From Microgenomates group bacterium GW2011_GWC1_46_15 (lineage in GTDB: Bacteria > Patescibacteriota > Microgenomatia > UBA1400 > UBA12028), in the NCBI GenBank assembly GCA_001002285.1, contig LCLX01000001.1, forward strand, positions 64,030 to 128,029: a stretch of 64,000 nt of DNA, written 5' to 3'. Below the pieces are notes generated by a model. That model did not search any database and was not told the origin of the DNA. It saw only the letters and a list, made by a program, of their open reading frames with translations. The number at the start of each line of letters is the position of its first letter. The first letter of the stretch is position 1. Of this stretch, positions 4,996 through 60,594 are shown in pieces. The translations under genes and the position numbers were made by a program.

Positions 4996-5739
4996 TTGCT
5001 CAAAGCGCCTATGTTGAAGATTACAAACCTCCACGTTTTTGTTGAAAAAACACCGATTCTTTCCGGCGTTTCGTTGGTGGTAAAACCTGGCGAGGTACAC
5101 GCCATTATGGGGCCAAACGGAAGTGGAAAGTCCACGCTGGCGTATACATTGGCCGGCCATCCAAAATATAGCGTCACGAAGGGTAATGTAAAACTGGACA
5201 AGCACAACCTTCTTGAAATGACTCCAGACGAGCGTGCCCGTGCGGGGTTATTTTTGGCATTCCAGTATCCCGTGGAAATTGGCGGCGTTTCTGTACAGAA
5301 CTTCTTGCGCGCGGCATACGAAGCAAAGTTTGGTCCGCTCAAAAGCATTGTAGAGTTCCGCGAAATATTGCGGATTGAAGGGGAGAAAGTTGGAGTAAAA
5401 AAAGAGTTGTTAGAGCGCAATGTAAACGAAGGATTTTCTGGTGGTGAAAAAAAGCGGTTGGAGATTTTGCAGATGATGGTGTTAAAACCGAGCGTTGCTG
5501 TGTTGGATGAAACCGATTCAGGTCTTGACGTTGACGCGATTAAAACCGTTGCTCGCGGAGTTCGCGCAGTGATTGCCGCGCACAATACTGGAGTGATTGT
5601 GATTACGCATTATCAGCGTATCTTAAAATACCTTGAACCCGAGTTTGTGCACGTGATGGTAAAGGGAAATATTGTCAAAAGCGGCGGACAGAAATTTGGT
5701 GAAGAGTTAGAAAAAAACGGATATACATCGTATGTCTAG
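4996..5739 (+). CDS. sufC: Fe-S cluster assembly ATPase SufC
   Basis: Walker A GPNGSGKST, ABC signature FSGGEKKR, and the SufC-typical length. The start may be at MLKITNL (5011). Confidence 0.9.
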   Translation: MLKAPMLKITNLHVFVEKTPILSGVSLVVKPGEVHAIMGPNGSGKSTLAYTLAGHPKYSVTKGNVKLDKHNLLEMTPDERARAGLFLAFQYPVEIGGVSVQNFLRAAYEAKFGPLKSIVEFREILRIEGEKVGVKKELLERNVNEGFSGGEKKRLEILQMMVLKPSVAVLDETDSGLDVDAIKTVARGVRAVIAAHNTGVIVITHYQRILKYLEPEFVHVMVKGNIVKSGGQKFGEELEKNGYTSYV

Positions 5740-8278
5740 ATTCGCTCCGATTAAACAACAGAAAAAACTCAAACTTCCCACAGATCCTGGTTACGCCTAC
5801 GGCTTCTCCGATCCAACAAACACGTATGCGTTTATCGAAAAACCCGGCCTTTCTCAAAGTGTTGTTGAAAATATTTCGAGTATGAAGGGCGAGCCAACAT
5901 GGATGCGGACAAAGCGCCTAGAGGCACTTAAGATTTTTCAATCAAAGTCCATGCCTCCTTGGGGCCCAAAACTCAACATAAACTTTGACGCGGTTCACTA
6001 TTACCTCAAGCCGGTTCAGCAGGAAACACAAAAATGGGAGGACGTTCCGGAGTACATTAAAAAAACATTTGACCGGCTTGGTACCCCGCAGGCTGAGCGT
6101 GAGTACTTGGCTGGTGTGAAAAATCAATTTGATTCAGAAGTTGTGCAGGGGAGCCTCAAAGACGTGTGGAAAAAACAGGGTGTCGTGTTTTTATCAATGG
6201 ATGAGGGACTGCGCCAGTATCCGGATTTGGTCCGTGAGTACTTTGGCAAAGTTATTCCGGTTGGCGACAACACATTCGCGGCGCTCAACACTTCGGTATG
6301 GAGTGGTGGTTCATTCGTGTACGTGCCGAAAGGCGTTGAAGTCACTTTTCCTTTGCAAGCGTACTTCCGTATTAACTCGCCCAACGCGGGGCAGTTTGAG
6401 CGCACGCTGATTATTGCCGATGAAGGGGCAAAAGTTTCGTACATTGAGGGATGTACTTCGCCGAGTTTTTCTTCTTCAAGCCTCCATTCCGCGGTCGTTG
6501 AAATTTTTGTGAAAAAAGGCGCGCGCGTGCAGTACACCACCGTGCAGAATTGGTATAAGCACGTGTACAACTTAGTAACAAAACGCGCGTTTGTGGAAGA
6601 AGAAGGCGAAATGATTTGGACAGATTTTAATATGGGCTGTTTAAGCGAGAGTTCTCGTTTATTTATAAAGGGAAGAGGATGTATTTCTATTAAAGATGTA
6701 AAAGCGGGAGACATTATTTGGTCTGTTGATATGCCGAACTTACAACCAATACAATCTCGCGTTATAGCATCAAAAATGACTGGAGTAAAACAAATTTTTC
6801 TCTTGGAAACAGAAAATCATCGTGAAATTGAAGCAACGAGTAATCATCCATTTCTTGTTCTCTCTCACGAGTCTGTGATGAAACATTATCAAACACTTCA
6901 ATGGAAGCAATTAAAAGATATTAAAGTAGGAGACTACATAGGAACGTCTAAGGGGCTTACAGATATATACCAAAGCAAACAATTGGAGTTTCATTTTACC
7001 AAAAAAAGAAAAACAAACAAAGTTATACATGACCCAACAATTCCTTCTAGCACATCAGAAAAATTGATGTGGATTATTGGTGCATATATGGGAGATGGGT
7101 ATTGTGAAAAGAATTCAAAAAAACAGTGGATTCGTGTATATTTTGCCATTCCCCCAAAGGATAAAATCAGGAAAAAAATGGAAAATACCCTTCAGGAAAT
7201 ATTTCATGTACTTCCGAAACCAAAAGGAATCTGTCTCACAATTCCTTCCATCATTGTTGCTGAATTTTTCCGTAGTTTACAACTCGGTGATACTGCAAAA
7301 ACCAAAAGAATTCCCTTTTGGATATATGAACTTCCGTTAAAAGAGAGACTTGCTTTTATTGAAGGGTACATGGATACAGACGGATCTGTCCGGGGAAATA
7401 AAAAAGACAAAAATGGTATACAACTTGGCCAAATTATATTTGCAAGCGTTCATAAATTATTACTTGAAGATTTGAAATTACTTATGATTAGTTGTGGTCT
7501 AAATCCACTTAAAATTTCTACATATACAAAGTTTCGAACATTATATAAAGGTAAATGGAAATACTACACATGTCACTTTCTCACGCACAATATTAGAGAT
7601 TACTTAACTTATATTAGGAGAAACGTTGAAGTACCGTCTCCTAGGATTGAATTTGTTCGAGTTGTGTCGATTATTCCACAGGGGAAAGAAAAAACATACG
7701 ATCTAGAAATTAAAGGAACATCTAATTTTATTGCAAATGGAATTATTGTTCATAATAGCAAGCTCACAATGAAGTATCCCTCGTTCATTTTGGCGGGCAA
7801 GGGTGCAAAAGGAGAAACGCTTTCTATGGCGTTGGCGGGTGCTGGCCAACACTTGGATACAGGGAGCAAAGCGATTCATCTCGCGCCATACACGTCGTCA
7901 ACGATTATCAGCAAATCTATTAGCAAAGACGGCGGGCGGACAAGTTACCGCGGGTTGGTGAGTATTGGCCCGAACGCGCACGGAAGCAAAAACAAGGTTG
8001 TGTGTGACGCACTTATTTTAGATTCACAGTCGCGGTCCGACACATACCCAACCGAACGCGTTTTGACGAACGACGTTTCGTTGGAGCACGAGGCAACGGT
8101 CTCAAAAATTGGCGAAGAACAACTCTTTTATTTGATGAGTCGCGGGCTTACAGAAGAACAGGCAAGCAAAATGATCGTGCGTGGCTTTGCCGAACCGTTG
8201 GTACGCAAACTGCCGCTTGAGTTTGCAGTAGAAATGAATCGGCTGATCGATATGGAAATGGAAGGATCGGTGGGATGA
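5732..8278 (+). CDS. sufB: Fe-S cluster assembly protein SufB interrupted by an in-frame intein
   Basis: The N-extein and C-extein (…TWTDFNMG / SKLTMKYPSFILAGKG…STIISKSISKDGGRTSYRGLV…EHEATVSKIGEEQLFYLMSRG) match SufB. A 373-aa insert runs from Cys (6638) to His-Asn (7756), and the +1 residue is Ser. Confidence 0.9.
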   Translation: MSRFAPIKQQKKLKLPTDPGYAYGFSDPTNTYAFIEKPGLSQSVVENISSMKGEPTWMRTKRLEALKIFQSKSMPPWGPKLNINFDAVHYYLKPVQQETQKWEDVPEYIKKTFDRLGTPQAEREYLAGVKNQFDSEVVQGSLKDVWKKQGVVFLSMDEGLRQYPDLVREYFGKVIPVGDNTFAALNTSVWSGGSFVYVPKGVEVTFPLQAYFRINSPNAGQFERTLIIADEGAKVSYIEGCTSPSFSSSSLHSAVVEIFVKKGARVQYTTVQNWYKHVYNLVTKRAFVEEEGEMIWTDFNMGCLSESSRLFIKGRGCISIKDVKAGDIIWSVDMPNLQPIQSRVIASKMTGVKQIFLLETENHREIEATSNHPFLVLSHESVMKHYQTLQWKQLKDIKVGDYIGTSKGLTDIYQSKQLEFHFTKKRKTNKVIHDPTIPSSTSEKLMWIIGAYMGDGYCEKNSKKQWIRVYFAIPPKDKIRKKMENTLQEIFHVLPKPKGICLTIPSIIVAEFFRSLQLGDTAKTKRIPFWIYELPLKERLAFIEGYMDTDGSVRGNKKDKNGIQLGQIIFASVHKLLLEDLKLLMISCGLNPLKISTYTKFRTLYKGKWKYYTCHFLTHNIRDYLTYIRRNVEVPSPRIEFVRVVSIIPQGKEKTYDLEIKGTSNFIANGIIVHNSKLTMKYPSFILAGKGAKGETLSMALAGAGQHLDTGSKAIHLAPYTSSTIISKSISKDGGRTSYRGLVSIGPNAHGSKNKVVCDALILDSQSRSDTYPTERVLTNDVSLEHEATVSKIGEEQLFYLMSRGLTEEQASKMIVRGFAEPLVRKLPLEFAVEMNRLIDMEMEGSVG
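6638..7756 (+). mobile_element. intein with LAGLIDADG homing-endonuclease domain inside sufB
   Basis: It begins CLSES… and ends …IVHN followed by S. Two LAGLIDADG-type motifs are present (LMWIIGAYMGDGYC and LAFIEGYMDTDGSV). The block is markedly A+T-richer than the flanking extein. Confidence 0.8.
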
Positions 8279-15644: not shown

Positions 15645-16076
15645 TTACCCAAGAAATTCAAATTCACGCACAAACATTTTCTTTAACCCCTTATCAAATG
15701 TTGCGATGCGTGTTGTTTTAAAATGCCGTGCGTACGCGATAATGCTGCAATCTTCCATGGATAACCAAGACGAAGTTTGTTTTGAGAAAATATCGAGTGT
15801 TTGAGAAAAAAGCGGATGTGTACAAAAAACAAGCGCAGTGTTTTTTGTTTGTTTATCAACAAAATGCCGCAGTAAACGACCAATGAGTTGTATTTGTTTC
15901 GTTTTTGTGAGTAAAACTGTTCCAACTTCTGCCAAAATTAAGTCGGATAATACTTTTTGCTGTGCCTCAATTTTTTTGACAAGTAACACCGCGCGCTCAT
16001 GGAGCGAATCATGTTCATTAAAGTATGCGATTAAAACATTTGAATCGAGAATAATTGGTTTATTTTTCATCTTCAT
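15645..16076 (-). CDS. vapC: PIN-domain ribonuclease toxin (VapC-like)
   Basis: MKNKPIILDSNVLIAYFNEHDSLHERA... carries the PIN acidic residues. Start taken at the internal MKNK, which gives a 17-nt overlap with the upstream antitoxin. Confidence 0.7.
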   Translation of the reverse strand: MKMKNKPIILDSNVLIAYFNEHDSLHERAVLLVKKIEAQQKVLSDLILAEVGTVLLTKTKQIQLIGRLLRHFVDKQTKNTALVFCTHPLFSQTLDIFSKQTSSWLSMEDCSIIAYARHFKTTRIATFDKGLKKMFVREFEFLG

Positions 16077-16356
16077 GAAGTTTTCCTCCATAAAGAATTT
16101 CATCAACACTTTTATCTTCAAAGTATGTTTTCCCACGCCAAGCATACAGTGTTGCAAGATCAGCAAATGTCATTTTCTTTCCCATTCTTTTTATCCGCAT
16201 CTTTTTTAATTCCTTGGCAACGATAGGTTCCAGCTTACCCCGTACAAAAGCAGAAACAGGAACTCCTTCATGTTGCGCAACGTACCGCAAATCACTGTAA
16301 AACGCGTCGGACACTTTTAATGGAAAGATTTTTTTCTTTGTTTTTCTATAGTTCAT
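16060..16356 (-). CDS. putative antitoxin (RHH/CopG-like) of the VapBC-type module
   Basis: 98-aa ORF immediately upstream of the PIN gene and overlapping it. FPLKVSDAFYSDLRYVAQHEGVPVSAFVRGKL resembles a ribbon-helix-helix fold. Confidence 0.5.
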   Translation of the reverse strand: MNYRKTKKKIFPLKVSDAFYSDLRYVAQHEGVPVSAFVRGKLEPIVAKELKKMRIKRMGKKMTFADLATLYAWRGKTYFEDKSVDEILYGGKLHEDEK

Positions 16357-18852: not shown

Positions 18853-19287
18853 ATGAGTGGACAATCCCATCGTTTAACACGGCGTCTTTTTCATCACCGC
18901 AAGTTCCGTACGGTATTTGTTCTCATTTTAATATTCACAGTTGTATTGGGTTTTACCATCGTTCCCATTGAAGCAACAAGTCCACTGGCAAGAATACACA
19001 CATCTGAAGAGGGGTTATGGTGGGCAGTTACCACAGTGACCGGTGTTGGATATGGCGACTTTGTTCCGATCACAACATTGGGGCGAGTGGTTGGCGCACT
19101 TCTGCAAATCTCCGGCGTTCTCATGTTTGGTCTTATTATCGGTATTATTGGTGTGACACTCACAAAACGGCAGGAAGAGTACTCATGGTTCCGTTTGTTC
19201 GACCGATTAGATCAGTTGGAAGAAAAACTGAACGCGTTAGAAAAAAAGAGCAAGTTTTTAATTCACAATGGGGAAGAAAAAGGGTAG
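18853..19287 (+). CDS. 2-TM potassium channel (KcsA-like pore)
   Basis: Two hydrophobic helices flank the selectivity filter TVTGVGYGDFVP, followed by a short coiled-coil tail. Confidence 0.75.
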   Translation: MSGQSHRLTRRLFHHRKFRTVFVLILIFTVVLGFTIVPIEATSPLARIHTSEEGLWWAVTTVTGVGYGDFVPITTLGRVVGALLQISGVLMFGLIIGIIGVTLTKRQEEYSWFRLFDRLDQLEEKLNALEKKSKFLIHNGEEKG

Positions 19288-19303
19288 GGTAGTCATATGT
19301 GTA

Positions 19304-19723
19304 TTATTTCAACACAATGAGATATGTGCCAAGAAGAAGGAAAAAGATGCCGAGTACTCCGAACTGTGAGATTTTTTCCTTAAACAACAGTACGCCAAGC
19401 ACAATTGCAAAAATAAAACTTAATTTATCAATAGGTACGACTTTGTGAACATCTCCAATCTGAAGCGCGCGGAAATAGAACAGCCACGAAAGACCTGTTG
19501 CAATACCGGACAATCCTAAAAACACCCACGTGAGTGTTGAGAATTTCCCAGCGTCTTTCAGATTTCCCTGAACGAGAACGATCAATAACGCAAACGGGAG
19601 GATAAAAAGGATGCGGATGAATGTTGCGAGATTGCTATCCACGCCCTTCATGCCGATTTTCGCAAAAATTGAGGTAAGCGCTGCAAACACCGCGGAGGCA
19701 AGAGCAAAAAGAAACCAATTCAT
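19304..19723 (-). CDS. small EamA/DMT-like half-transporter
   Basis: Four hydrophobic helices with EamA-like composition. Start taken at MNWFLF to avoid overlap with the 5'-3' exonuclease gene. Confidence 0.55.
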   Translation of the reverse strand: MNWFLFALASAVFAALTSIFAKIGMKGVDSNLATFIRILFILPFALLIVLVQGNLKDAGKFSTLTWVFLGLSGIATGLSWLFYFRALQIGDVHKVVPIDKLSFIFAIVLGVLLFKEKISQFGVLGIFFLLLGTYLIVLK

Positions 19724-49368: not shown

Positions 49369-50004
49369 ATGATGATGATGAACAAAGCAGCCGCACTCAA
49401 AGATATCCGCGCCCAGCTCGAAGCAGATTATGCCGACCTCCCCCTTGTTTCCAAACCCGAGGATATCGTTCCTGGCGAAGGAAATGGTGAAGCAGAGATT
49501 CTGTTTATCGGTGAAGCCGCCGGGCGCAACGAAGCAATTCAGCGCCGCCCATTTGTTGGACTTGCCGGAAAACTCGTTGACCGCCAGCTTCAAAAAATAA
49601 ACATCAAACGTGAGGATGTGTACATCAGCAACGTCGTGAAGTGCCGTCCGCCGGAGAACCGCGATCCACTGCCGGAAGAAATTGCCGCGTTCGCGCCGTA
49701 CCTCGATAAAGAAATCGAGATTATTGATCCAAAACTCATCATCACGCTAGGCCGATTCAGTATGGGAAAGTTTATTCCCGATGTCAAAATCAGCATGATT
49801 CACGGGCGATTACATAAAGTAAAGTTCAAAGGAAAAACGCGGTTTGTTTTGCCGTTTTATCATCCGGCGGCAGCGTTACGGCAAGGAAAAGTGATGGACA
49901 TGTTTGAGAAAGATTTTTTGCGCGTACCAGCAATTCTCAAATATATTAAAGAACACGCGCAAGATATTCTTGTAGAAGAAACTATTATAGAAACGTTATT
50001 TTAG
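49369..50004 (+). CDS. uracil-DNA glycosylase, family 4/5 (thermostable UDG-like)
   Basis: Motif A GEAAGRNE and motif B FYHPAA. The start is probably ATG 49378. Confidence 0.65.
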   Translation: MMMMNKAAALKDIRAQLEADYADLPLVSKPEDIVPGEGNGEAEILFIGEAAGRNEAIQRRPFVGLAGKLVDRQLQKINIKREDVYISNVVKCRPPENRDPLPEEIAAFAPYLDKEIEIIDPKLIITLGRFSMGKFIPDVKISMIHGRLHKVKFKGKTRFVLPFYHPAAALRQGKVMDMFEKDFLRVPAILKYIKEHAQDILVEETIIETLF

Positions 50005-50044
50005 CCGCGCATATGCAGCACGGCTGAAACGTGAAAGGAAAAAT

Positions 50045-51706
50045 ATGAATGCATTAAAAATTATTCCGCTTGGCGGAATGGGAAACGTCACACGCAATAT
50101 GTTCGTGTATGAGTATGACAATGAAATACTCATCGTGGACTGCGGTATCGGATTTCCCGAAAAATACATGCTCGGAGTTGATGTGCTTATCCCGGACGTG
50201 TCGTATATTCAAAAGCGCTTAAAAGAGGGGGCGAAAATTATCGCGCTGTGTTTGTCGCACGGGCACGATGATCACATCGCGGCTCTGCCGTACATTTTAC
50301 CCATGCTCGATGCAGAGTTCCCGATCTTTGGATCTCCGCTCACCGCGGCGTTTGCGAAAGCCCGCATGGCCGACCACGGAATCGAAAAAGAAGTGCTTGA
50401 GTACGACGAAACCCGGCCGATGAAGTTTGGCAAGTACTTTGCGGTTGAAACGATTCGGATGACGCACTCGGTGCCGGACACGCGCCACCTCGTGATTCAC
50501 ACGCCGGAAGGTTCTGTGTATCACGGTTCGGACTTTAAACTGGACATGAACCCTGTCGATGGCATCCGCCCGGATTTCTCCAAAATCGCGACGATTGGAA
50601 ACGCTGGTGTATTGTGCGCGCTCGTTGACTGTCTGCGCGTTGATCGCCAAGGATGGTCGCCTTCCGAAACCATTATTCTTGATGCACTGGAACGCGAGAT
50701 ACGTGACTGCAAAGGCAAGATGCTGATTACGTTGATGAGCTCAAACATTCATCGCGCCCAGCAGGCAGTGGACGTTGCGGTGAACCACAATAGAAAAGTT
50801 GTGTTGGTTGGCCGGTCCATTGAGCAAAACGCAGAAGTCGCCCAGCAACTTGGTATGTTGAACATTCCAAAAGGAACACTTGTGCAGAAAAAACACATGG
50901 ACGAATACAAAGATAATCAACTGCTGATTATCATTGCCGGAAGCCAGGGCCAGCCAGGGTCCTCGCTTGTGCGCGCGGTGTACGGGGAACACCCACTTAT
51001 TACCATTGGCAAGAACGACAAAGTTGTGTTTAGCACAGAACCAATTCCCGGCAATGGGCCGAACGTGTACGAAACAATTGACGAGTTGTCGCGCAACAAC
51101 ATTGATGTGTCGTACTCCGACATTGATGACGACTTGCACGTTTCCGGACACGCGGGAGTTGTTGAACAGCAGCTGCTCATTTCATTGGTGAAACCAAAGT
51201 ACTTGATACCAATTGGCGGCACCGATCGCCACCGTGTCCAGTTCCGCCAAATGGCGATGAGGTTAGGATACGATGGCCGGCAAGTTCTGCTCCCAAAGAC
51301 AGAGCAAACTGTTGTGATGTCGAAGGGTCAAGCCTCACAGGGCGAGGAAGTTCCACTCAAAGACCTCATGGTTGATGGGCTAGGAATTGGCGACGTTGGG
51401 AACGTTGTTCTCTCTGACCGCAAACTTATGGCCGAAGAAGGAATGGTTGTCGTCATTATCCCCATGAGTGATGGCGTGTGGGACCTCAAACGCATCGCCG
51501 TGGTCAGTCGAGGCTTTGTGTTCATGAAGAAAGCCGACGAGATGGTCCGCGCGATCAAGGAGGAAACAACCGAGATTTTGACAAAAGAGGGCAAGCGCCT
51601 CGATGAAATCGAGCTCAAGCGGACGATTGAAAAACGGTTGACAAAGCGGATGGACGCATTGATCGGCCGAACGCCGCTCATTTTACCGGTGTTTTACGAG
51701 GTATAA
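50045..51706 (+). CDS. rnj: ribonuclease J (metallo-beta-lactamase/beta-CASP)
   Basis: LSHGHDDHIAALPY, the beta-CASP region, and the C-terminal domain. Confidence 0.85.
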   Translation: MNALKIIPLGGMGNVTRNMFVYEYDNEILIVDCGIGFPEKYMLGVDVLIPDVSYIQKRLKEGAKIIALCLSHGHDDHIAALPYILPMLDAEFPIFGSPLTAAFAKARMADHGIEKEVLEYDETRPMKFGKYFAVETIRMTHSVPDTRHLVIHTPEGSVYHGSDFKLDMNPVDGIRPDFSKIATIGNAGVLCALVDCLRVDRQGWSPSETIILDALEREIRDCKGKMLITLMSSNIHRAQQAVDVAVNHNRKVVLVGRSIEQNAEVAQQLGMLNIPKGTLVQKKHMDEYKDNQLLIIIAGSQGQPGSSLVRAVYGEHPLITIGKNDKVVFSTEPIPGNGPNVYETIDELSRNNIDVSYSDIDDDLHVSGHAGVVEQQLLISLVKPKYLIPIGGTDRHRVQFRQMAMRLGYDGRQVLLPKTEQTVVMSKGQASQGEEVPLKDLMVDGLGIGDVGNVVLSDRKLMAEEGMVVVIIPMSDGVWDLKRIAVVSRGFVFMKKADEMVRAIKEETTEILTKEGKRLDEIELKRTIEKRLTKRMDALIGRTPLILPVFYEV

Positions 51707-51711
51707 CGAAA

Positions 51712-51731
51712 GATCGGGACTTCCCCTACCC
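51712..51731. repeat. GATCGGGACTTCCCC motif copy 1
   Basis: Read directly from the sequence. Confidence 0.5.
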
Positions 51732-51821
51732 TATATGAAAGATTGATAGATAGGACAAAGATGGAAGACCGTTTTTGAGTACTGTATTATATATAGTTCA
51801 AACTGAATCAAAAAGAGCAGA

Positions 51822-51840
51822 GATCGGGACTACCCATATA
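51822..51840. repeat. GATCGGGACTACCC motif copy 2 (direct)
   Basis: Read directly from the sequence. Confidence 0.5.
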
Positions 51841-51905
51841 CCAGCACTTCACAATCTAACAATTGGTATTAAAAAAACCTGTTCTGTCAAATAAAAAACA
51901 ACATT

Positions 51906-51921
51906 AACGGGAAGTCCCGAA
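51906..51921. repeat. inverted copy 3 (AACGGGAAGTCCCGAAC)
   Basis: Read directly from the sequence. Confidence 0.5.
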
Positions 51922-51971
51922 CTTACCTGGTAGCCTTCCACCCCTTCCCCCCTTGTGCTAGGATAAAACGT

Positions 51972-54152
51972 ATGGCACGTCGAGGAAGAAAACGGGCACT
52001 TTTCAAGGTAAAACTACGGGCGGAAACGCTCCACTCGTTGGGCGCACTTACACTGTTTGCGTGTGCTGGGCTTGTCGCGGCCTCATTCTCTGGCCAGGGT
52101 GAAATTCTGCAGGGAATGAATGACTTTCTCCGGCATATGCTCGGTCCGGTCGCGCTTTTTGTGCCATTTCTTTTTATCTCTATGGGTCTTGTGCTCACCG
52201 GCGTACGGTGGTCGTTTGCCAAACCACAGGTGTTACTCGGGAGTATATTGTTGACGCTTTCTATTGCGGTACTTGGGAAAACAGGAACACTCGGCGTGGA
52301 TATGTACAGAAACCTAAGTGTCCTTATTCTGCCAGTCGGTACAAACATGTTGTTCATCACGATATTTGTTGCATCACTTTTACTCATGAGTGATACGTCA
52401 ATTGGCGATATTTTCCGCTTTTTCCGCTCATTTATTGAAGTGCAAAAGGGTGGAGTGAGGCCGGAAAAAGGTTTTTCAAAAATTGCTCTCCCAAATATGA
52501 TTTCTGGTGACTTTAAGATCCGGGGTGGTAATCAGGCACAAAAAGCAGCGGATGCCGCGCTTGCGCAAAAAACTGGCCTTGGTGGCCTTACCCAACAGCA
52601 AAAAGATGAAAAAAGAGAAATGGAAATTTATCACAAACGGCCTATTCTGTCTGATGAATCTGGGCTTCCTGAAAAAACGCTTCTCAATGTTCCTGGCGAA
52701 CAAATGGTGTGGCAGCTTCCCCCGCTGAGTATGTTAGATCAGCGGTCTGGTGGCCAAGCCGACCGCGGTGATGTAAAAGGGAGCGCCGAGATTATTGAAA
52801 AAACGCTGGACTCGTTTGGTATCCGCTCAAAAGTGCGCGAGGTAAACCTTGGTCCGGCGGTTACGCAGTACGCACTGGAAATCGCGTTAGGCACAAAGTT
52901 GTCCAAAATTACGTCGTTGTCCAACGACTTGGCACTTGCTTTGGCCGCTCCAACGGGCCAAATCCGTATCGAAGCGCCAATTCCTGGCCGCGGGTATGTT
53001 GGCATCGAAATTCCAAACCGCTCACCTGAACTTGTCACAATGCGCGCGATGCTCACGAGCGATGCAATGAAGAAGGCAAAATCAAAGTTGTGCGTTCCGT
53101 TGGGGCTCAATGTTTCCGGCGAGGCGGTTGTTACTGACATCGCGAAGATGCCGCACTTGCTTATCGCCGGCGCTACGGGTTCGGGTAAATCGGTTGCTGT
53201 GAACGCGTTTATTTCATCAATCCTATTCCGCGCGTCACCAAACGAAGTGAAGTTTATTCTTGTTGATCCAAAACGTGTTGAGTTGACGCAGTACAACGAT
53301 ATTCCGCATCTTTTGACTCCGGTTATCGTGGAGCCAAAAAAAGTTGTTTCGGCGCTCAAATGGGCCATGAATGAAATGGATCGCCGGTACAAAACGTTTG
53401 CCGAGGTTGGCGTTCGCAATCTTGAAGCATTTAATGAGCTATCCGGATTCCAGGCGCTTCCGTACATCGTCATTATTATTGATGAGCTGGCGGATATTAT
53501 GTTGTTTAACCCGGCCGATGTTGAAGAAGCCGTAACGCGCATTGCACAAATGGCGCGTGCCACTGGCATCCACTTAGTCCTCGCGACGCAGCGCCCTTCG
53601 GTTGATGTTATTACCGGTCTTATCAAAGCAAACATTCCTGCGCGTATGGCATTCAACGTTACCTCAATGACAGACTCGCGTGTTATTTTGGACAGTCCAG
53701 GTGCGGAAAAACTACTGGGCCGTGGAGACATGCTGTATACTCCTCCCGATCAAGCGAAACCGAGCCGTATCCAAGGTACGTATATTACCGACAAAGAAGT
53801 GCGCGCGCTCATTGATTTCATCAAGAAAAACGGGTTGCAGCCGCAGTATCAGGAAGAAATTACAACCAAGTTTATTTCCAATAAAGTCGGGGCGCGTGGT
53901 GGAACAGCGGGCAATGGTTCAGATGAAACCGACCCACTGATTGATGAAGCAGTTCGCATTGTCATGGAGTATGACCGCGCATCCGCCTCAGTCTTGCAAA
54001 GAAGATTATCGGTTGGATACTCGCGCGCGGCCCGCATTATTGACCAGCTTTTTGAACACGGCATTGTCAGCCCGCCGGAAGGAAGTAAGCCGCGCGATGT
54101 AAACATGAAAGCCGCGCAGGACTATTTGGCGAGTAAAGAACAAACCTCATGA
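51972..54152 (+). CDS. ftsK: DNA translocase FtsK/SpoIIIE
   Basis: N-terminal TM helices, Walker A GATGSGKSV, Walker B IIIDELAD, and the C-terminal gamma winged helix. Confidence 0.85.
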   Translation: MARRGRKRALFKVKLRAETLHSLGALTLFACAGLVAASFSGQGEILQGMNDFLRHMLGPVALFVPFLFISMGLVLTGVRWSFAKPQVLLGSILLTLSIAVLGKTGTLGVDMYRNLSVLILPVGTNMLFITIFVASLLLMSDTSIGDIFRFFRSFIEVQKGGVRPEKGFSKIALPNMISGDFKIRGGNQAQKAADAALAQKTGLGGLTQQQKDEKREMEIYHKRPILSDESGLPEKTLLNVPGEQMVWQLPPLSMLDQRSGGQADRGDVKGSAEIIEKTLDSFGIRSKVREVNLGPAVTQYALEIALGTKLSKITSLSNDLALALAAPTGQIRIEAPIPGRGYVGIEIPNRSPELVTMRAMLTSDAMKKAKSKLCVPLGLNVSGEAVVTDIAKMPHLLIAGATGSGKSVAVNAFISSILFRASPNEVKFILVDPKRVELTQYNDIPHLLTPVIVEPKKVVSALKWAMNEMDRRYKTFAEVGVRNLEAFNELSGFQALPYIVIIIDELADIMLFNPADVEEAVTRIAQMARATGIHLVLATQRPSVDVITGLIKANIPARMAFNVTSMTDSRVILDSPGAEKLLGRGDMLYTPPDQAKPSRIQGTYITDKEVRALIDFIKKNGLQPQYQEEITTKFISNKVGARGGTAGNGSDETDPLIDEAVRIVMEYDRASASVLQRRLSVGYSRAARIIDQLFEHGIVSPPEGSKPRDVNMKAAQDYLASKEQTS

Positions 54153-54787
54153 CAGAGATGAAGTCGGTTGGACGCCTTTTTCAAGACGAGCGGAAGCTCC
54201 AGCACAAAACGTTGGAAGACATTGCGAAACGCACCAAGATTCATGTAGAGTTTTTATCTTCGATTGAATCGGATGATTTTTCTGCGCTCCCGCAAGGCCC
54301 GTTTGTAAAAGGATTTATCCGCACGTACGCGTTGGAGCTTGGATTGGATCCGGAGCATGTATTAGCGATCTACCGCCGCGATTTTGGCGTGCAGCCTCAG
54401 CAAAAACTTGTTCCTGATGGTGTGTTGTATCCGCTCAAACGGTCTGTGTGGAGATGGTTTTCACCAAAAACGCTTGGAGCACTTATTGTAACTTGTGTTG
54501 CGGGCGTGTTTCTCATCTTTCAATTGATCTCGCTTCAACGACTGCCCATTGTAGTAGTCAGTAGCCCTTCGGACAACACATCAACAAAAAGTCCGGTATT
54601 TGTGAAGGGGAGAACGGATACCGATGTTGTTATAACAATAAACGATGCGCAAATTTCGTTAAATCAAGATGGTGAGTTTCAAACATCGCTTGAACTTTCA
54701 ACTGGAGACCAAACAATAACGGTGCGTGCCGAAAATAGAAAAGGAAAAAGTACGATTGTCCGGCGTTCGATCAGTGTTGTACAATGA
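54149..54787 (+). CDS. rodZ: RodZ-like HTH/transmembrane protein
   Basis: LEDIAKRTKIHVEFLSSIESDDFSALPQGPFVKGFIRTYALELGLD mirrors the RodZ N-terminal HTH. One TM helix follows. Confidence 0.55.
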   Translation: MTEMKSVGRLFQDERKLQHKTLEDIAKRTKIHVEFLSSIESDDFSALPQGPFVKGFIRTYALELGLDPEHVLAIYRRDFGVQPQQKLVPDGVLYPLKRSVWRWFSPKTLGALIVTCVAGVFLIFQLISLQRLPIVVVSSPSDNTSTKSPVFVKGRTDTDVVITINDAQISLNQDGEFQTSLELSTGDQTITVRAENRKGKSTIVRRSISVVQ

Positions 54788-54802
54788 AAAGAAAGGAAAT
54801 AT

Positions 54803-55072
54803 ATGGATCCACTTGTTCTTACACTCACTATTGTTAGCTCGGTGCTCGCAATTTTCTTAGTTATTCTTGGAGTACAGGCATTTTTAACGCTCCGCGATGT
54901 ACGCGCGACATTAAAGAGAATAAATACGATTATGGATGTTACACAAAACACCGCGCTCCGGGCGCTTGTGCCATTTTCAAACATGGGCGGATTTGTTACA
55001 GGCATTAAAAGCGGGCTCAAAGTATTTGAAACATTCGTGCAGTATCTCCACAGGAGTATGAATGAAGAATGA
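54803..55072 (+). CDS. hypothetical small membrane protein
   Basis: 89 aa, one TM helix. Confidence 0.35.
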   Translation: MDPLVLTLTIVSSVLAIFLVILGVQAFLTLRDVRATLKRINTIMDVTQNTALRALVPFSNMGGFVTGIKSGLKVFETFVQYLHRSMNEE

Positions 55073-55421
55073 TATGCAAACGCAGGAAAAGAACTCCGGG
55101 GGTTTTACCGCGGGAATCGTTCTTGGTGCGTTAACCGGCATGGTCGGGATGTTTTTGTTCGGCACAAAAAAAGGCGAGAAAACATTGCATAAGCTAAAAC
55201 AAAAATGGGAAACGATCAAGCCTACAATTGAAGCAGAACTTGAACAAGAGGGCCACATACTCGAGAAATCGAAGAAGCCGTTTTTCCAAGCCGTTGGCGA
55301 GATTGTTGATTATGTCGCGGACTCTCTGGAAAGTGGAGAGAAAAAATCAAAGCCTTTCATGATCGGTGGGACAAGGCAGCAGTCTCAGCAGGTGAAAAAG
55401 CGGTATTTCAAGAAAGCATAA
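55062..55421 (+). CDS. hypothetical small membrane protein
   Basis: 119 aa, one TM helix (GIVLGALTGMVGMFLFG). Confidence 0.35.
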   Translation: MKNDMQTQEKNSGGFTAGIVLGALTGMVGMFLFGTKKGEKTLHKLKQKWETIKPTIEAELEQEGHILEKSKKPFFQAVGEIVDYVADSLESGEKKSKPFMIGGTRQQSQQVKKRYFKKA

Positions 55422-55445
55422 CTTTCCTCTGGTATAATCTTCTGT

Positions 55446-57377
55446 ATGACTCCCAACGACCTTCGCACACAGTACATTGCATTTTTCTTTGTTCGCGGGC
55501 ACGCAGAACTCCCTTCAGCCCCGCTTGTTCCGGAAAACGATCCCACCACGCTGTTTACAGGTTTTGGTATGCAGCCGCTCGTTCCATATCTTTTGGGTCA
55601 GCCCCATCCTGAAGGGAAACGCTTAGTAAACTCGCAAAAAAGTTTCCGGTCGGGGGATATTGAGGAAGTTGGGGACAATCGGCACACCACATTTTTTGAG
55701 ATGCTTGGAAATTGGTCGCTCGGCGACTACTTTAAAAAAGAGCAACTCCAATGGTGTTTTGAGTTTTTAACGCAAACGCTTGAACTCGACCCAAAGAAAT
55801 TATTTGTAACGGTATTCCGTGGAAACGATGCAGTTCCACGCGATACCGAGTCGGTGAAGATTTGGAAAACGCTTTTTTCCGATGTTGGTATGCAGGCGCA
55901 GGATGTTGATTTTTCTGAGCGCGACGGGATGCAAAACGGCCGCATTTTTTACTACGATGAAAAGAAAAACTGGTGGTCGCGGTCGGGCGTTCCCTCTGCA
56001 ATGCCTACGGGTGAGCCTGGTGGACCGGATAGCGAAGTGTTCTATGATTTTGGTGCAGAACTGGGTTTGCATGAGTCCTCGCCATACAAAAATCAGCCAT
56101 GCCACGTAAACTGCGACTGCGGCCGGTTTTTGGAAATCGGCAACAGCGTGTTTATGCAGTATCAAAAACAAGCCGATGGTTCGTTTACTGAACTTCCACA
56201 AAAAAATGTTGATTTTGGCGGTGGCTTGGAAAGAATTTTAGCTGCAGTACATGATGAACCAGATATATTCAAAACAGAATTTTTTAGTGATTTAAGAAAT
56301 AAATTACTCGACGGAATAAATAAAGTAATAATAGATCAGACCAATCCAGAGTATACAAAATTGACTAATACAAGGGAATCTAGAGTAAGAATATTTTTAG
56401 ACCACTCAAGGGCTGTAATATTTCTTATGGGTGAGGGCATAAAACCAGGGAAAAACGAAAGAGAATATGTGGTGCGTAGATTAATTAGAAGAGCTGATGA
56501 TCAGTTATCTATCCTTAAATTAGACCACGAATTGTACTGGAAGGAGGCAATTTCTCATTATAAAAAAGTTTACAAAAATGTTTATAGTGCCTCATGGGAT
56601 CAAGAAAATATTCTAGGCATCATAATCAATGAATTAAGAATATATGGTACTGTTTTTAAAAATGTTGAGAAAATAAAAATAGAATTAATAAAATTAAAAG
56701 AAAAATTTTCACCAATTTCCCTTGCTTCAACATACGCTGGTCCAGTTTTATTTCATTATCAAAGTACGTATGGAATACCTAGTACAGCAACTCTCCCATT
56801 AATAGAAGAAGTTGGTTTATTACCAAAATATGCTTTTACAAGTTTTAATAAAGAAAAAGCGTACCATCAGGAAAAATCACGCACGGCATCCAAGGGTATG
56901 TTTAAAGGGGGACTTGCGGATCACTCAGAAAACGTAACGAAGTACCACACTGCAACGCACCTTCTGCACGCCGCGCTGCGCAAAGTACTCGGTGAACACG
57001 TTTCTCAGCAGGGCTCAAACATTACGGGTGAACGACTGCGGTTTGATTTTTCGCATCCCACAGCGCTCACAGAAGAACAAAAAAAGAAAGTTGAAGATAT
57101 GATCAATGAAAAAATCAAAGAAGATCTTCCCGTAACGCAAGAAATGGTGTCCAAAGACGAGGCGCTCAAGCAGGGGGCGATGGCATTTTTCAAAGAAAAA
57201 TACGCCGATACCGTTTCCATGTATACGATCGGCAAAGATCTTAAAAAAGGCTGGTTTTCTAAAGAGTTGTGCGGCGGCCCGCACGTTGCGCATACCGGTG
57301 AAATTGGCCCAATAAAAATCACAAAAGAGGAATCAGTTGGCTCAGGGATTCGGAGAATCTATGTGCAGTTTGCCTAA
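55446..57377 (+). CDS. alaS: alanine--tRNA ligase, short form (catalytic + recognition + editing domains, no C-Ala domain)
   Basis: FTGFGMQP, FFEMLGNWSLGDYFK and GGGLERI form the class II core. The editing HxxxH...CGGxH is present (HTATHLLHAAL...ELCGGPHVAHTGEIG). Only 643 aa. Confidence 0.85.
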   Translation: MTPNDLRTQYIAFFFVRGHAELPSAPLVPENDPTTLFTGFGMQPLVPYLLGQPHPEGKRLVNSQKSFRSGDIEEVGDNRHTTFFEMLGNWSLGDYFKKEQLQWCFEFLTQTLELDPKKLFVTVFRGNDAVPRDTESVKIWKTLFSDVGMQAQDVDFSERDGMQNGRIFYYDEKKNWWSRSGVPSAMPTGEPGGPDSEVFYDFGAELGLHESSPYKNQPCHVNCDCGRFLEIGNSVFMQYQKQADGSFTELPQKNVDFGGGLERILAAVHDEPDIFKTEFFSDLRNKLLDGINKVIIDQTNPEYTKLTNTRESRVRIFLDHSRAVIFLMGEGIKPGKNEREYVVRRLIRRADDQLSILKLDHELYWKEAISHYKKVYKNVYSASWDQENILGIIINELRIYGTVFKNVEKIKIELIKLKEKFSPISLASTYAGPVLFHYQSTYGIPSTATLPLIEEVGLLPKYAFTSFNKEKAYHQEKSRTASKGMFKGGLADHSENVTKYHTATHLLHAALRKVLGEHVSQQGSNITGERLRFDFSHPTALTEEQKKKVEDMINEKIKEDLPVTQEMVSKDEALKQGAMAFFKEKYADTVSMYTIGKDLKKGWFSKELCGGPHVAHTGEIGPIKITKEESVGSGIRRIYVQFA

Positions 57378-57404
57378 GCTCCTCTTTCTTGATTAAATAG
57401 GGGT

Positions 57405-59744
57405 ATGGGTCTGCCACATCTTTTTCCTGGTGCGAAAAAAACCACAGATCAGCGGGTGTTTCTTTCCCTGGATATTGGAGAAGAAACGATCACTGCTGGG
57501 TTGTGGAAGATTGAGAATAATACCATTGAGTTCCTCAAGACAAGTAGTCCAATTGAGTGGAAAGATACGTCTCCCACAGATGCCGCCGAGGCTGCGGACG
57601 TTGCGCTTGGAGAACTTGGCCAAGACGCCGACAACGTGCACGATATTGTGTTTGGACTTCAGGAATCTTGGGTGCGGGGGCAGACTATCGTTGTTGACCG
57701 CAAACCCGTTCTCAAACTTCTCAAAGAACAACTTGAGCTTCACCCCTTAGGATTTGTTGTAACAACAGAAGCGTTGCTCCATTATCTGCAAGCTGAAGAA
57801 GGCGGACCGATCAGCTCGATTCTTCTGCAGTACACAAGTGAGCACATCATTGTTACGCTCGTGAAAGCGGGCAAAGTGATTCGGACAGAACAGGTTGGTC
57901 GGAGTGGAAGTAGTGTTGCCGATGTTATCGAGGGATTAACGAGGTTTTCCGGTACCACATTACCATCGCGCATGATTGTGTACAGCGTCCGCATGAAAGC
58001 GGAGGAGTTGGAGCGGGAAAAACAAACGTTGCTCACGCAGGAATGGCAAAAGGCTGTGAAGTTTCTCCATGTTCCAAAAATTGATGTGCTCCCCCCACAT
58101 ACGGTGATTCGGGCGGTGTGTGTTTATGGAGGGACAGAAGTCGCGGTGTCGCTTGGATATATTCAGCGCGGTGAAGCGGAGTCGCTTGTTCAATCGGGAG
58201 TTGCGGTGGGAAACGTGCACGAGGAAGAACCATTGCCTGCAAAGCGTGGGAAAAGAATGGTTGTTGAAGAAGTTGTGCCGGATGTCGTTGTACCTCCACA
58301 AAAATCACCAATAACAATGAGTTCCGCGGAAGAGTTTGGATTTCATGATGTTGGGAGCGCTACGGGTGTGGAACAAGAACAACCGCGGGAAGAAATAAAA
58401 ATCCGCGGGTATGTAACAGAAGAAGATACTTCGAATGTTTCTGGTATGGAACAGGAACGCGTAGAATTGCAGCCTCTATCGCAAATACAAAAACGCGCGT
58501 TCACCCTCCCCTCATTGGGGGCAATGTTTAGTGCAGTGCGTCTGCCTAAAATATCTCTGCCAAAAATTTCTATTCAACTACCGTCACTTTCCGGCGGCCA
58601 GACGGGACTAATGATTGGTATCGTACTCGTTGTTCTTCTCCTGGGAGTTGGCGGCGGCGCGTTCGCGCTTTCAAAAACAATGACGACAGCGTTCACCGTT
58701 GTGCTTAACACATCACCCATTTCAAAAGACATTGATATTACGTTGGATCCCACCGCAGCGCAGTCTAACCCCGAAGCAAATGTGGTAAAAGCGACAGTTA
58801 TAGAAAAAGAAGTATCGGGCGCGATGGAAGGTGCGACAACGGGAACGAATATTGTTGGCGACAAGGCAAAAGGAAAAGTAACGATATATAACGCAACGGG
58901 GAGCGAGAAAAAGTTTCCTGCGGGAACAACAATTACTGCGGCCAACGGCTTTAAGTTTACGCTTGATGGAGAAGTGATCATTGCAAGTTCTTCCGGCTCT
59001 TCCGCGCTCAACTCTCAGTTGGGTCAGGCTGATGTAACAGTGACTGCCGCAAAAATCGGCGCAGACTCTAATCTCCCAGCAAAAACGGAGTTTTCTGTAG
59101 CGAACTTTGACAAAAAAACGTATGTTGCGTCTAATGCCGATGCTTTTTCAGGTGGAACGAGCAGAGAAATTCAGGCGGTTTCAAAAGCAGACATAGACTC
59201 TCTTTCCAGCCTATTAACAGAAGATCTTAAGAAAAAAGCAAAAGACGCGCTCGTCCAGGGGGAAATTGGTGACATACACATCATTCCGGCGGATGAGTTT
59301 GAAGTCAAAAGCCAGCAGTTTAGCGCAAAAGCGGGTGACGAAGCAAAACTGGTAAATGTTTCGATGACGCTTACGGCAAAAGGCGTGTCATATACCACCG
59401 CCGACCTCCTTCCGATCGCGCAACGGCAGCTTCAAGATCTCTTGCTCGATGGCGCAGTGTTACGACAGGAAAAAACGCAGTTAACTGTACAATCGCTCGA
59501 GCGTGACAAGGAAGCATATCAGCTGAAAGTTTCACTCGTGTCAGAAACAATTCCGGCGTTTGATAAATCTTCCGCGATCTCAAACATTATGGGTAGAACA
59601 CTTTTGCAGAGCGTGAACATACTCAAAGACATGAAAGAGGTACAAGACGCGCGTGTTGTTGTTTTACCAGGCATCGCAAAAACTGTTTTTGGCGTGGTTC
59701 CAAAAGATACGAAACGCGTAACAATGCAGACAACGTTAGAGTAA
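57405..59744 (+). CDS. large membrane protein: cytoplasmic FtsA/actin-like N-terminal region, one TM helix, extracellular beta-rich C-terminal half
   Basis: VFLSLDIGEETITAGLWKIE resembles the actin-fold phosphate-1 loop. TM helix LMIGIVLVVLLLGVGGGAFAL near aa 400. Confidence 0.45.
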   Translation: MGLPHLFPGAKKTTDQRVFLSLDIGEETITAGLWKIENNTIEFLKTSSPIEWKDTSPTDAAEAADVALGELGQDADNVHDIVFGLQESWVRGQTIVVDRKPVLKLLKEQLELHPLGFVVTTEALLHYLQAEEGGPISSILLQYTSEHIIVTLVKAGKVIRTEQVGRSGSSVADVIEGLTRFSGTTLPSRMIVYSVRMKAEELEREKQTLLTQEWQKAVKFLHVPKIDVLPPHTVIRAVCVYGGTEVAVSLGYIQRGEAESLVQSGVAVGNVHEEEPLPAKRGKRMVVEEVVPDVVVPPQKSPITMSSAEEFGFHDVGSATGVEQEQPREEIKIRGYVTEEDTSNVSGMEQERVELQPLSQIQKRAFTLPSLGAMFSAVRLPKISLPKISIQLPSLSGGQTGLMIGIVLVVLLLGVGGGAFALSKTMTTAFTVVLNTSPISKDIDITLDPTAAQSNPEANVVKATVIEKEVSGAMEGATTGTNIVGDKAKGKVTIYNATGSEKKFPAGTTITAANGFKFTLDGEVIIASSSGSSALNSQLGQADVTVTAAKIGADSNLPAKTEFSVANFDKKTYVASNADAFSGGTSREIQAVSKADIDSLSSLLTEDLKKKAKDALVQGEIGDIHIIPADEFEVKSQQFSAKAGDEAKLVNVSMTLTAKGVSYTTADLLPIAQRQLQDLLLDGAVLRQEKTQLTVQSLERDKEAYQLKVSLVSETIPAFDKSSAISNIMGRTLLQSVNILKDMKEVQDARVVVLPGIAKTVFGVVPKDTKRVTMQTTLE

Positions 59745-59766: not shown

Positions 59767-60594
59767 ATGCAAAAAATCGTGTACAAGAAAGCGAGTCGGG
59801 TTTCCGTACAGCGGAACAGTGTTCCTGCGCCGTACCATCAAACAAAAAGCCGGAGGTTTGTCCACATCATTCCCGCGGTTTTAGTAACACTGGGGAGTAT
59901 GCTGATTGCAAACGTGTTGTGGCCGATTATTTCGTATCAACTCTTCGTTTCTCCATCACTGCAAAAACAAGCGCTTCTTTCGCCGGTTGCGGATACTTCA
60001 TTTGATGAAACTGGTTCGTACATTCAACAGGTGTTGCCTGTCCGCGCATTGGGTGATGAAAGAATTCCGCGCGAGCCAAAAATTTTAACGGAAGAGTTGG
60101 ACTACACAAACCTTTCACAATGGTTCCCAACGCAGGAAATTCCGGAAGTTCGGCCGGAAGAAGCAATCACGTATGAAATTGACATTCCCGCTCTGCGTAT
60201 TCAGCAGGCAAAAGTGAAGGTAGGCGGGCTTGCTCTTGATAAAAACTTGATTCAATATCCTGGTACTGCTAATCCTGGTGAACTGGGGTCGCCGGTGATT
60301 TTTGGACACTCCGTTTCGCCATTGTTTTATAATCCCTCGCTCAACAACCCACGGCGGTACGTTTCAATTTTTACAAAAATTATGGACTTAAAGAAGGGTG
60401 ATACAATCACTGTCCGGTACGACGGTATTACGTATACCTACCGTGTAACGAACAAAATGGAAGTGAAACCTGAAGATACGTACATTCTTCAGCAAAGATA
60501 TGATGTCCGGGAGCTGAAGCTTGTTACATGTACACCGCCGGGAACGGTACTGCGGCGCGGTATCGTGTTTGCCCAACTGGAAGACATACAATGA
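59767..60594 (+). CDS. sortase-family transpeptidase
   Basis: N-terminal anchor. VIFGHS...KKGDTITVRYDGITYTYRVTNKMEVKPEDTYIL...LKLVTCTPPGTVLRRGIVFA parallels the SrtA His, TLxTC Cys and Arg triad. Confidence 0.7.
   Translation: MQKIVYKKASRVSVQRNSVPAPYHQTKSRRFVHIIPAVLVTLGSMLIANVLWPIISYQLFVSPSLQKQALLSPVADTSFDETGSYIQQVLPVRALGDERIPREPKILTEELDYTNLSQWFPTQEIPEVRPEEAITYEIDIPALRIQQAKVKVGGLALDKNLIQYPGTANPGELGSPVIFGHSVSPLFYNPSLNNPRRYVSIFTKIMDLKKGDTITVRYDGITYTYRVTNKMEVKPEDTYILQQRYDVRELKLVTCTPPGTVLRRGIVFAQLEDIQ

Follow-up and report, generated by a model that had tools for sequence, protein, structure and literature searches.

Probable replacement of the tRNA-recognition domain of alanyl-tRNA synthetase in a Microgenomates bacterium

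We analyzed a 64,000-nucleotide stretch of contig LCLX01000001.1 ("the window") from Microgenomates group bacterium GW2011_GWC1_46_15, a genome of Pacebacteria from groundwater. The gene of interest is alaS (55446..57377, + strand), which encodes alanine--tRNA ligase (AlaRS). Inside alaS is an A+T-rich block that matches a single structural module, the helical tRNA-recognition domain (or "mid-domain"), and the ancestry of this block differs from that of the rest of the gene. The best explanation, with a probability of roughly 90%, is that the mid-domain was recently replaced by that of an unsampled low-GC bacterium from the candidate phyla radiation (CPR). A preliminary description of this DNA had proposed the replacement of one domain from a low-GC donor, rather than an intein or an insertion, and the composition of the block, the comparison to a sister contig, and the phylogenies all support this proposal.

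A block of different composition and ancestry within alaS

The preliminary description reported a segment of about 30% G+C, at 56220-56870, within a gene of about 50% G+C. Indeed, the G+C content of this tract is 0.306, as compared to 0.479 in the 5' part of the gene (55446-56219), 0.467 in the 3' part (56871-57377), and 0.453 on average across the window. Whether we slid windows of 200, 400, or 600 nucleotides across all 64 kb, the window with the lowest G+C was inside this tract. The drop is strongest at the third position of codons (G+C at third positions, or GC3, is 0.18-0.19 in the tract and 0.49-0.51 elsewhere in alaS), so amino acid composition alone cannot explain it. A likelihood scan for two changepoints in GC3 gave a log likelihood ratio of 34.5, while codon shuffles gave 5.8 ± 1.7, with a maximum of 13.5 (0 of 500 reached 34.5). 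Among 793 windows of 213 codons from the 25 long open reading frames (ORFs) in the window, the alaS tract has the lowest GC3 (0.19, vs. a mean of 0.447 and a standard deviation of 0.095); the next lowest is an intein-like tract in sufB. Thus, the drop is large and significant by G+C, by GC3, and by the changepoint scan.

The nearest homolog of the window's AlaRS, P0002, is encoded on a 9.5-kb sister contig (L004). The sister contig is syntenic with the window: both contain UDG, RNase J, FtsK, a protein with an HTH_25 domain, two small ORFs, alaS, and a large downstream protein (779 amino acids in the window). According to blastn, the two contigs are 92.2% identical over 49375-56275 and 92.1% identical over 56865-58705, while 56276-56864 cannot be aligned. 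Overall, the DNA of the two lineages differs by about 8%, and their divergence at third positions is 0.20-0.23. Within alaS, the 5' segment is 91.6% identical (65 mismatches in 776 nucleotides) and the 3' segment (56861-57377) is 90.5% identical. The amino acid identity of the two proteins is 94% for residues 1-238 and 95% for residues 472-643, but just 33% for residues 239-471. The sister has a homologous mid-domain at the equivalent place (561 nucleotides or 187 codons, instead of 639 nucleotides or 213 codons), which implies a replacement, and neither an insertion nor an intein. We also compared the identity of the flanks to the identity of the mid-domain for all pairs of 120 homologs. The pair of the window's protein and P0002 was the most extreme outlier (z = -5.5). 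All 15 of the most discordant pairs involved the window's protein, and swaps in other proteins were not seen among these 15.

To compare the ancestry of the parts, we built neighbor-joining trees (75 sequences, 100 bootstraps) separately for the N-terminal, middle, and C-terminal parts of AlaRS. These trees are incongruent. In the trees for the N-terminal and C-terminal parts, the window's protein groups with P0002, with 100% bootstrap support in each. In the tree for the mid-domain, it groups instead with P0003, P0009, P0050, P0241, and P0242, also with 100% bootstrap support. We call the mid-domain of this latter group "type-B" and that of P0002 and its relatives "type-A." The window's mid-domain is 50-55% identical to those of P0003, P0009, and P0050, but 33% identical to that of P0002 and 31-34% identical to those of P0004-P0014. 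The catalytic parts of P0003, P0009, and P0050 are more distant from the window's (64-66% identity). Across homologs, the mean identity to the window's protein is 31% for the mid-domain, as compared to 75% and 66% for the flanks. In contrast, P0002 and the clade P0004-P0014 share 62-72% identity in the mid-domain (and 76-79% in the N-terminal part), and the G+C content of P0002's mid-domain (0.433) resembles that of its host, as would be predicted if this domain was inherited vertically.

The composition of the block also resembles the genes of the type-B carriers, rather than its own host. In the window, the mid-domain has a G+C of 0.302 and a GC3 of 0.192, within a context whose G+C is 0.454. 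The corresponding values for the type-A mid-domain of the sister contig L004 are 0.433 and 0.353, in a context of 0.483. We read the contigs for three carriers of type-B domains, whose contexts have 31-39% G+C. These are L006 (which encodes P0003; mid-domain G+C of 0.338 and GC3 of 0.262, context 0.377), L007 (P0009; 0.305 and 0.199, context 0.309), and L008 (P0050; 0.305 and 0.218, context 0.387). Because the GC3 of the window's tract equals that of these donor-like genes, the tract has not ameliorated, so the event was recent. It took place after the split from L004. One of these carriers, L006, also retains the gene order of alaS, a large protein, and a sortase, which indicates that the donor group comprises related CPR bacteria. 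The donor was probably another, unsampled Microgenomates-like bacterium of the CPR.

The boundaries of the block are sharp. On the left, the native 5' segment (55446..56221; amino acids 1-259) encodes the class II catalytic core up to motif 3, and its G+C is 0.480 (GC3 of 0.486). The window and L004 match exactly at 56100-56176 and nearly so up to 56221. The left crossover zone (56199..56221) is a 23-nucleotide run, CAAAAAAATGTTGATTTTGGCGG, that is identical to the sister and encodes Q-K-N-V-D-F-G-G of motif 3. This run is nearly identical in the type-B gene of L006 as well, which has AAA AAT GTG GAT TTT GGC GGA there. From 56222 onwards, differences are dense: the window has GGT GGC TTG GAA AGA ATT TTA GCT GCA, while L004 has GGA GGA TTA GAA CGC ATA CTT GCC GCG. 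If we consider only the composition, the left changepoints are slightly early (56160 or 56184), because A+T is already rather high in the native sequence at 56160-56221.

The acquired segment (56222..56864; amino acids 260-472) encodes the complete, all-helical type-B domain; it stands out by its composition, the absence of a blastn match to the sister, the tree, and the predicted structure. On the right, the GC3 changepoint is at 56858. Host-like sequence returns between 56859 and 56868 (GCG TAC CAT CAG GAA AAA TCA CGC AC), with host-level G+C from codon 472 (GCG), and the match to the sister is regained from 56865 (CA.CAGGAAAAATCACGCAC). The alignments place the right crossover zone at 56859..56884. 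This junction is a few codons 5' of the conserved HQEKSRTASKGMFKGG block, and the invariant RTASKGMFKGG block is directly to the right of the junction. The native 3' segment (56865..57377; G+C of 0.470 and GC3 of 0.491) includes a linker helix, the RTASKGMFKGG block, the editing core with its zinc motifs, and the stop codon. Both native segments are recognized by their identity to the sister, their composition, and the trees. The tract at 56220-56870 in the preliminary description was nearly right and is refined to a start at 56222 and an end at about 56859-56868. That description also placed the segment between motif 3 and the editing domain. It is bounded by the catalytic and editing parts, but it begins inside the codons of motif 3, as the first foreign base is 56222. 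Overall, alaS has the hallmarks of a mosaic gene: sharp breakpoints with near-identical flanks, a segment whose tree conflicts with the rest, and a block whose composition resembles a plausible donor.

Just to the right of the right junction, at 56862-56960 (codons 473-505), the divergence from L004 at third positions is the highest in alaS (12-14 of 24 codons, vs. a mean of 5.2 and a standard deviation of 2.6). In these codons, the GC3 is host-like and the protein is identical to the sister. This could reflect a second small patch of recombination, in either lineage, or the repair of a heteroduplex.

The chimeric protein and the acquired domain

As the preliminary description stated, the reading frame of alaS stays open throughout, and the gene encodes 643 amino acids. 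The protein has the short form of AlaRS that is found in Patescibacteria, namely a catalytic core, a helical tRNA-recognition domain, and an editing core. Pfam identifies PF01411 (tRNA-synt_2c; residues 6-503, E = 1.2e-87) and PF07973 (tRNA_SAD; residues 590-639, E = 3.5e-18), and no other domains. An identical protein is labeled by NCBI as alanine--tRNA ligase from a metagenome-assembled genome (MAG) of Candidatus Pacebacteria. The class II catalytic core is of the AlaRS type and has motif 3 (GGGLER) at residues 258-263. In the editing domain, the zinc motifs HxxxH (H501 and H505) and CxxxH (C609 and H613) are invariant across 120 homologs. The protein stops at residue 643, right behind the editing core and just past CxxxH, so the earlier claim that the C-Ala domain is missing was also right. 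All 119 of the closest homologs have 615-651 amino acids and the same two Pfam domains, without C-Ala. The absence of C-Ala is a trait of the whole short-form clade and is unconnected to the domain swap, and it is no ground for excluding the window's protein from AlaRS.

We used AlphaFold2 (with 120 homologs) to predict the structure of the chimeric protein. The model has a mean predicted local distance difference test score (pLDDT) of 87.4 and a predicted TM-score (pTM) of 0.80, and the pLDDT of the mid-domain is mostly 80-97. The swapped residues are all helical: they run from helix H261-268, which is the first helix past the last beta-strand of the catalytic core, to the first half of the helix at 460-485. 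Next come a linker that is modeled with low confidence (484-491) and then the editing core. When the model was compared to known structures with Foldseek, catalytic fragments of AlaRS, with the tRNA-recognition domain included, had TM-scores by target (TMt) of 0.74-0.83, and the C-terminal part matched AlaX-S with TMt of 0.82-0.84. In the model, the exchanged unit is a complete tRNA-recognition module, with the crossovers in the conserved sequence that brackets it.

By sequence comparison, the acquired domain is far less canonical than the one that it replaced. Against E. coli AlaRS, the window's mid-domain scores 48.7 bits (E = 8e-12), while the sister's scores 160 bits (E = 5e-46). In E. coli AlaRS, Asn303 reads U70 in the major groove, and Asp400 reads the 2-amino group of G3 in the minor groove (PMC6055181). 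We identified the equivalent positions with phmmer (to 3HXU) and, independently, with hhalign (a type-B profile vs. E. coli 219-439); these equivalences are from sequence alignment only. Asn303 aligns with K336, which lies in PGKN instead of the family's PSNK (codons K336-N337 are at 56451..56456, + strand). Asp400 aligns with S440, which lies in YQSTYGIP instead of the LYDTYGFP of E. coli (codon at 56763..56765, + strand). By these alignments, the conserved Asn/Asp pair is replaced by Lys and Ser in the window's protein.

We also examined these two columns across 75 related AlaRS from Patescibacteria. The Asp400 column contains E (44), Q (24), S (6), or A (1), and never Asp; Ser is present only in the six type-B sequences, and in all six of them. 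The Asn303 column contains N (67), K (5), S (1), Q (1), or P (1). All five of the Lys are in type-B proteins (the window's protein, P0003, P0009, P0050, and P0242). That Asp is never present at the Asp400 column suggests that this lineage may read the G3:U70 base pair differently. In E. coli AlaRS, D400A and D400N are nearly inactive, while the human and archaeal enzymes tolerate such substitutions (Chong et al., PMC6055181). We looked for a tRNA-Ala gene, so as to inspect its G3:U70 pair, but there was none in the window, in the 10 kb on each side of it, or in the loci L004 and L006-L008.

A more ambitious idea is that type-B represents a separate, previously undescribed class of tRNA-recognition domain, which would lack the Asn/Asp readers, make other contacts to the acceptor stem, circulate as an exchangeable cassette within the CPR, and have been swapped in by selection rather than neutrally. 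We consider this combination of claims to be rather unlikely. If it were true, then selection might have favored, for example, altered discrimination against competitor tRNAs, or escape from an agent that targets the interface of AlaRS and tRNA.

As a separate observation, tRNA-Ser genes are numerous in the window and on either side of it (GGA, GCT, CGA, TGA, and ACT). ARAGORN identified a neighboring pair of tRNA-Ser genes, with the anticodons ACT (which is unusual) and TGA, at 19247-19433 of the upstream locus L009, which is about 8.6-8.8 kb upstream of the start of the window.

Alternative explanations, the donor, and a possible mechanism

The swap could in principle have run the other way: type-B might be ancestral to the pair, and L004 might have re-acquired a mid-domain that is typical of the clade. 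As the pair has only two members, the polarity does rest on outgroups and on composition. However, L004's mid-domain has host-like composition (G+C of 0.433 and GC3 of 0.35), and its 62-72% identity to the clade fits the level of the flanks (about 0.70-0.79). The window's mid-domain, on the other hand, is un-ameliorated (GC3 of 0.19 in a gene with GC3 of 0.49), and the remaining members of the clade (P0004-P0015 and others) all have type-A domains. We consider the reverse direction to be very unlikely. A slightly smaller chance goes to an error in assembly, in which reads from a co-occurring low-GC organism were joined into alaS at conserved stretches. alaS is a conserved gene, metagenome assemblers can switch between genomes at shared k-mers, and the left junction does lie in a conserved run of 23 nucleotides. 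But two switches would be needed, at runs that are identical to the sister over 23 nucleotides on the left and about 17-20 nucleotides on the right, and these are far below the final assembly k of 127 or 141 (judging from k127 and k141 in the names of the contigs). Furthermore, DNA that is 100% identical over 3.1-7.9 kb, across both junctions, is present in ENA ERZ909589 (from groundwater), ENA ERZ28564264, and Logan SRR6482851. This very protein is encoded by 22 contigs (the longest has 422 kb), with NCBI among the sources, and the mosaic gene retains its frame, its domain boundaries, and a confidently predicted fold.

Another scenario does without any transfer: the mid-domain might have evolved rapidly in place and drifted towards A+T under relaxed constraint. 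In this family, AlaRS is less conserved in the mid-domain than anywhere else, and the G+C of the mid-domain is always lower than that of the flanks by a few points. This scenario would not account for the specific similarity to the type-B clade (50-55% identity and 100% bootstrap support), nor for the indels and the motifs (RIFLDHSR, PGKNEREY, RRLIRRADDQL, and YQSTYG) that are common to type-B. The change is also abrupt at both ends, next to flanking DNA that is 92% identical to the sister, and it is not credible that the mid-domain fell to 33% amino acid identity while the flanks changed by 5-6%. We view evolution in place as highly improbable. Finally, an A+T-rich, in-frame tract in a conserved gene might be an intein or another selfish insertion, like the intein-like tract in sufB (at about 6522-7881). 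But homology to the AlaRS mid-domain extends over the entire alaS tract: PF01411 is unbroken over residues 6-503, and both phmmer and hhalign match the tract to residues 219-414 of AlaRS from E. coli. At the equivalent site, the sister encodes a mid-domain whose length is similar (187 vs. 213 codons), Pfam at E ≤ 1 finds no Hint or endonuclease domain, and the AlphaFold2 model has a normal helical domain there. There is next to no chance that the tract is an intein.

Several observations do weigh against a transfer from a low-GC CPR bacterium, or complicate it. We did not find a close donor in a search of 5.8 billion proteins, in a library of representative proteins, in the genomes of GTDB species, or in JGI metagenomes; the best matches had 50-55% amino acid identity. 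Also, the mid-domains are 2-7 G+C points below their flanks in L004 and in L006-L008, so a small share of the 17-point drop in the window is intrinsic to the family. The similarity at the right junction is short in the available type-B genes, which makes a double crossover that is purely of the RecA type less certain. And the copy number of alaS was judged from the 64-kb window and 10 kb on each side only; within the window, we found neither a second copy of alaS nor a leftover native mid-domain.

The details of the donor search are as follows. In the search with the full-length protein, P0002 had 1025 bits and P0003 had 856 bits, and no protein had a score in between. This empty gap argues against a close donor that has been sampled, because a protein with a near-identical mid-domain would score in that range. 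An exhaustive search of the representative library gave at best 46-49% identity (P0241 and P0242). The window's protein was itself not returned by the representative search, so a close donor could hide behind the representative of its cluster. Searching the GTDB species genomes and JGI metagenomes for six 8-residue patterns from the mid-domain did not reveal a close relative. Word-indexed protein searches with the mid-domain alone (215-233 amino acids), or with a profile of four type-B sequences, found only short or partial AlaRS with 28-49% identity, but these searches also missed the window's own protein and P0003, P0009, and P0050, so they are uninformative about the donor and are not evidence that relatives are absent. 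One candidate from the representative search, P0243 (1569 amino acids, with 13 matched stretches), was rejected as a spurious ORF with tandem repeats.

If the mid-domain was replaced by transfer, then the process would have begun with the uptake of DNA from a low-GC relative, after the split from the lineage of L004. A double crossover would have exchanged about 640 nucleotides for a homologous but very divergent type-B domain, by homologous recombination or by homology-facilitated illegitimate recombination. The left crossover would have been anchored in the strongly conserved codons of motif 3, and short homology upstream of the RTASKG block might have resolved the right crossover. Crossovers in motif 3 and before the HQEKSRTASKGMFKGG block would preserve the reading frame and the domain boundaries. 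In the product, a tRNA-binding module of foreign origin would sit between the native catalytic and editing cores. Since alaS is essential, a product would survive only if it was in frame and functional. It is probable that the chimera is active, because the ORF is intact, all of the contigs have the same allele, the catalytic and zinc motifs are invariant, and the fold is predicted with confidence. We infer that this allele is functional and fixed in the species.

Natural transformation is often proposed for the CPR. About 3-10 kb beyond the end of the window (L010, 13148-20432), genes for T2SSE, T2SSF, and N_methyl pilins form a cluster that resembles a type IV pilus locus. This type IV pilus or type II secretion (T2SS) cluster is a possible apparatus for DNA uptake and might be relevant to the entry of foreign DNA.

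Known systems and neighboring genes

The process of partial gene transfer, which leads to mosaic genes, is already known, and the window's alaS is a clean new example of it. (For horizontal gene transfer, or HGT, of parts of genes, a general treatment is included in PMC3241670.) As in other mosaic genes, such as penA of Neisseria, an internal block has been replaced in frame by a homologous block, with breakpoints, conflicting trees, and a change in composition. alaS differs from penA in that the protein identity of the incoming block to the replaced one is only about 33%, and in that the block is one whole module and lies in an essential aminoacyl-tRNA synthetase (aaRS) gene from the CPR. The classical mosaics of the penA type were selected by antibiotics, while no selective agent is recognized for the window's alaS. 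The donors for classical mosaic genes are about 80-95% identical in DNA. What is remarkable here is how precisely the swap follows a domain boundary, how divergent the new module is, and that an essential gene for translation was affected.

Horizontal transfer of whole genes is well established for many aaRS; Wolf et al. (1999) and Woese et al. (2000) reportedly described such transfers. In both situations, foreign aaRS sequence is tolerated because the identity rules of the tRNA are shared. In the window, however, only the tRNA-recognition domain moved, and it must work with native domains with which it did not co-evolve. AlaRS is also known to have separable modules, as in the split AlaRS-alpha/beta of Nanoarchaeum equitans (PMC11392972), AlaX, and the active fragment of E. 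coli AlaRS (residues 1-441), and the editing core of the window's protein resembles AlaX-S. But those are splits or truncations, while in the window's alaS, the middle module was replaced between two native ones. The acquired domain does share its position, its all-helical fold, and the motifs DH..R, RRxxRRA, and TYG.P with the canonical bacterial tRNA-recognition domain (PMC6055181), which has Asn303 and Asp400 at the positions that are occupied by Lys336 (with Asn337 next to it) and Ser440 in the acquired domain. A full-text search, which covered part of the literature, did not find a published swap of domains in AlaRS or a report of peculiarities of AlaRS in the CPR.

The replacement offers an unusually clean natural experiment in domain swapping within an essential enzyme of translation. 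It suggests that the modules of AlaRS can be interchanged in vivo across large sequence distances, and that recombination in the CPR can exchange individual domains, even within core genes for information processing. This is a caveat for phylogenies from single genes or concatenated markers and for quality checks of MAGs. More broadly, the swap draws attention to a divergent family of mid-domains, and to the AlaRS of Patescibacteria in general, in which the generality of the mechanism for recognizing G3:U70 becomes testable.

Downstream (3') of alaS is the 779-amino-acid protein (57405-59744, + strand), which has a weak match to Baseplate_J and a predicted membrane segment, and then a sortase (59767-60594, + strand). 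The same order of alaS, a large protein, and a sortase is present in L006, a distant carrier of type-B.

The second-lowest-GC tract of the window, at about 6522-7881, is in an ORF of 848 amino acids for SufB (5732-8278, + strand). The tract resembles an intein with a LAGLIDADG homing endonuclease, and the putative junctions are MGC|LSESS ... IVHN|S. NCBI's gene call at this tract is shorter, at 548 residues, and has Pfam matches to Intein_splicing, LAGLIDADG_3 (weak), and SUFBD_core.

An ORF of 173 amino acids (15645-16166, - strand) has a G+C of about 0.36 and looks like a PIN-domain (VapC-like) toxin. It lies between a trpS-like gene and an FtsH-like gene (these labels are from reading the translations), and it is possibly a remnant of a mobile toxin-antitoxin system.

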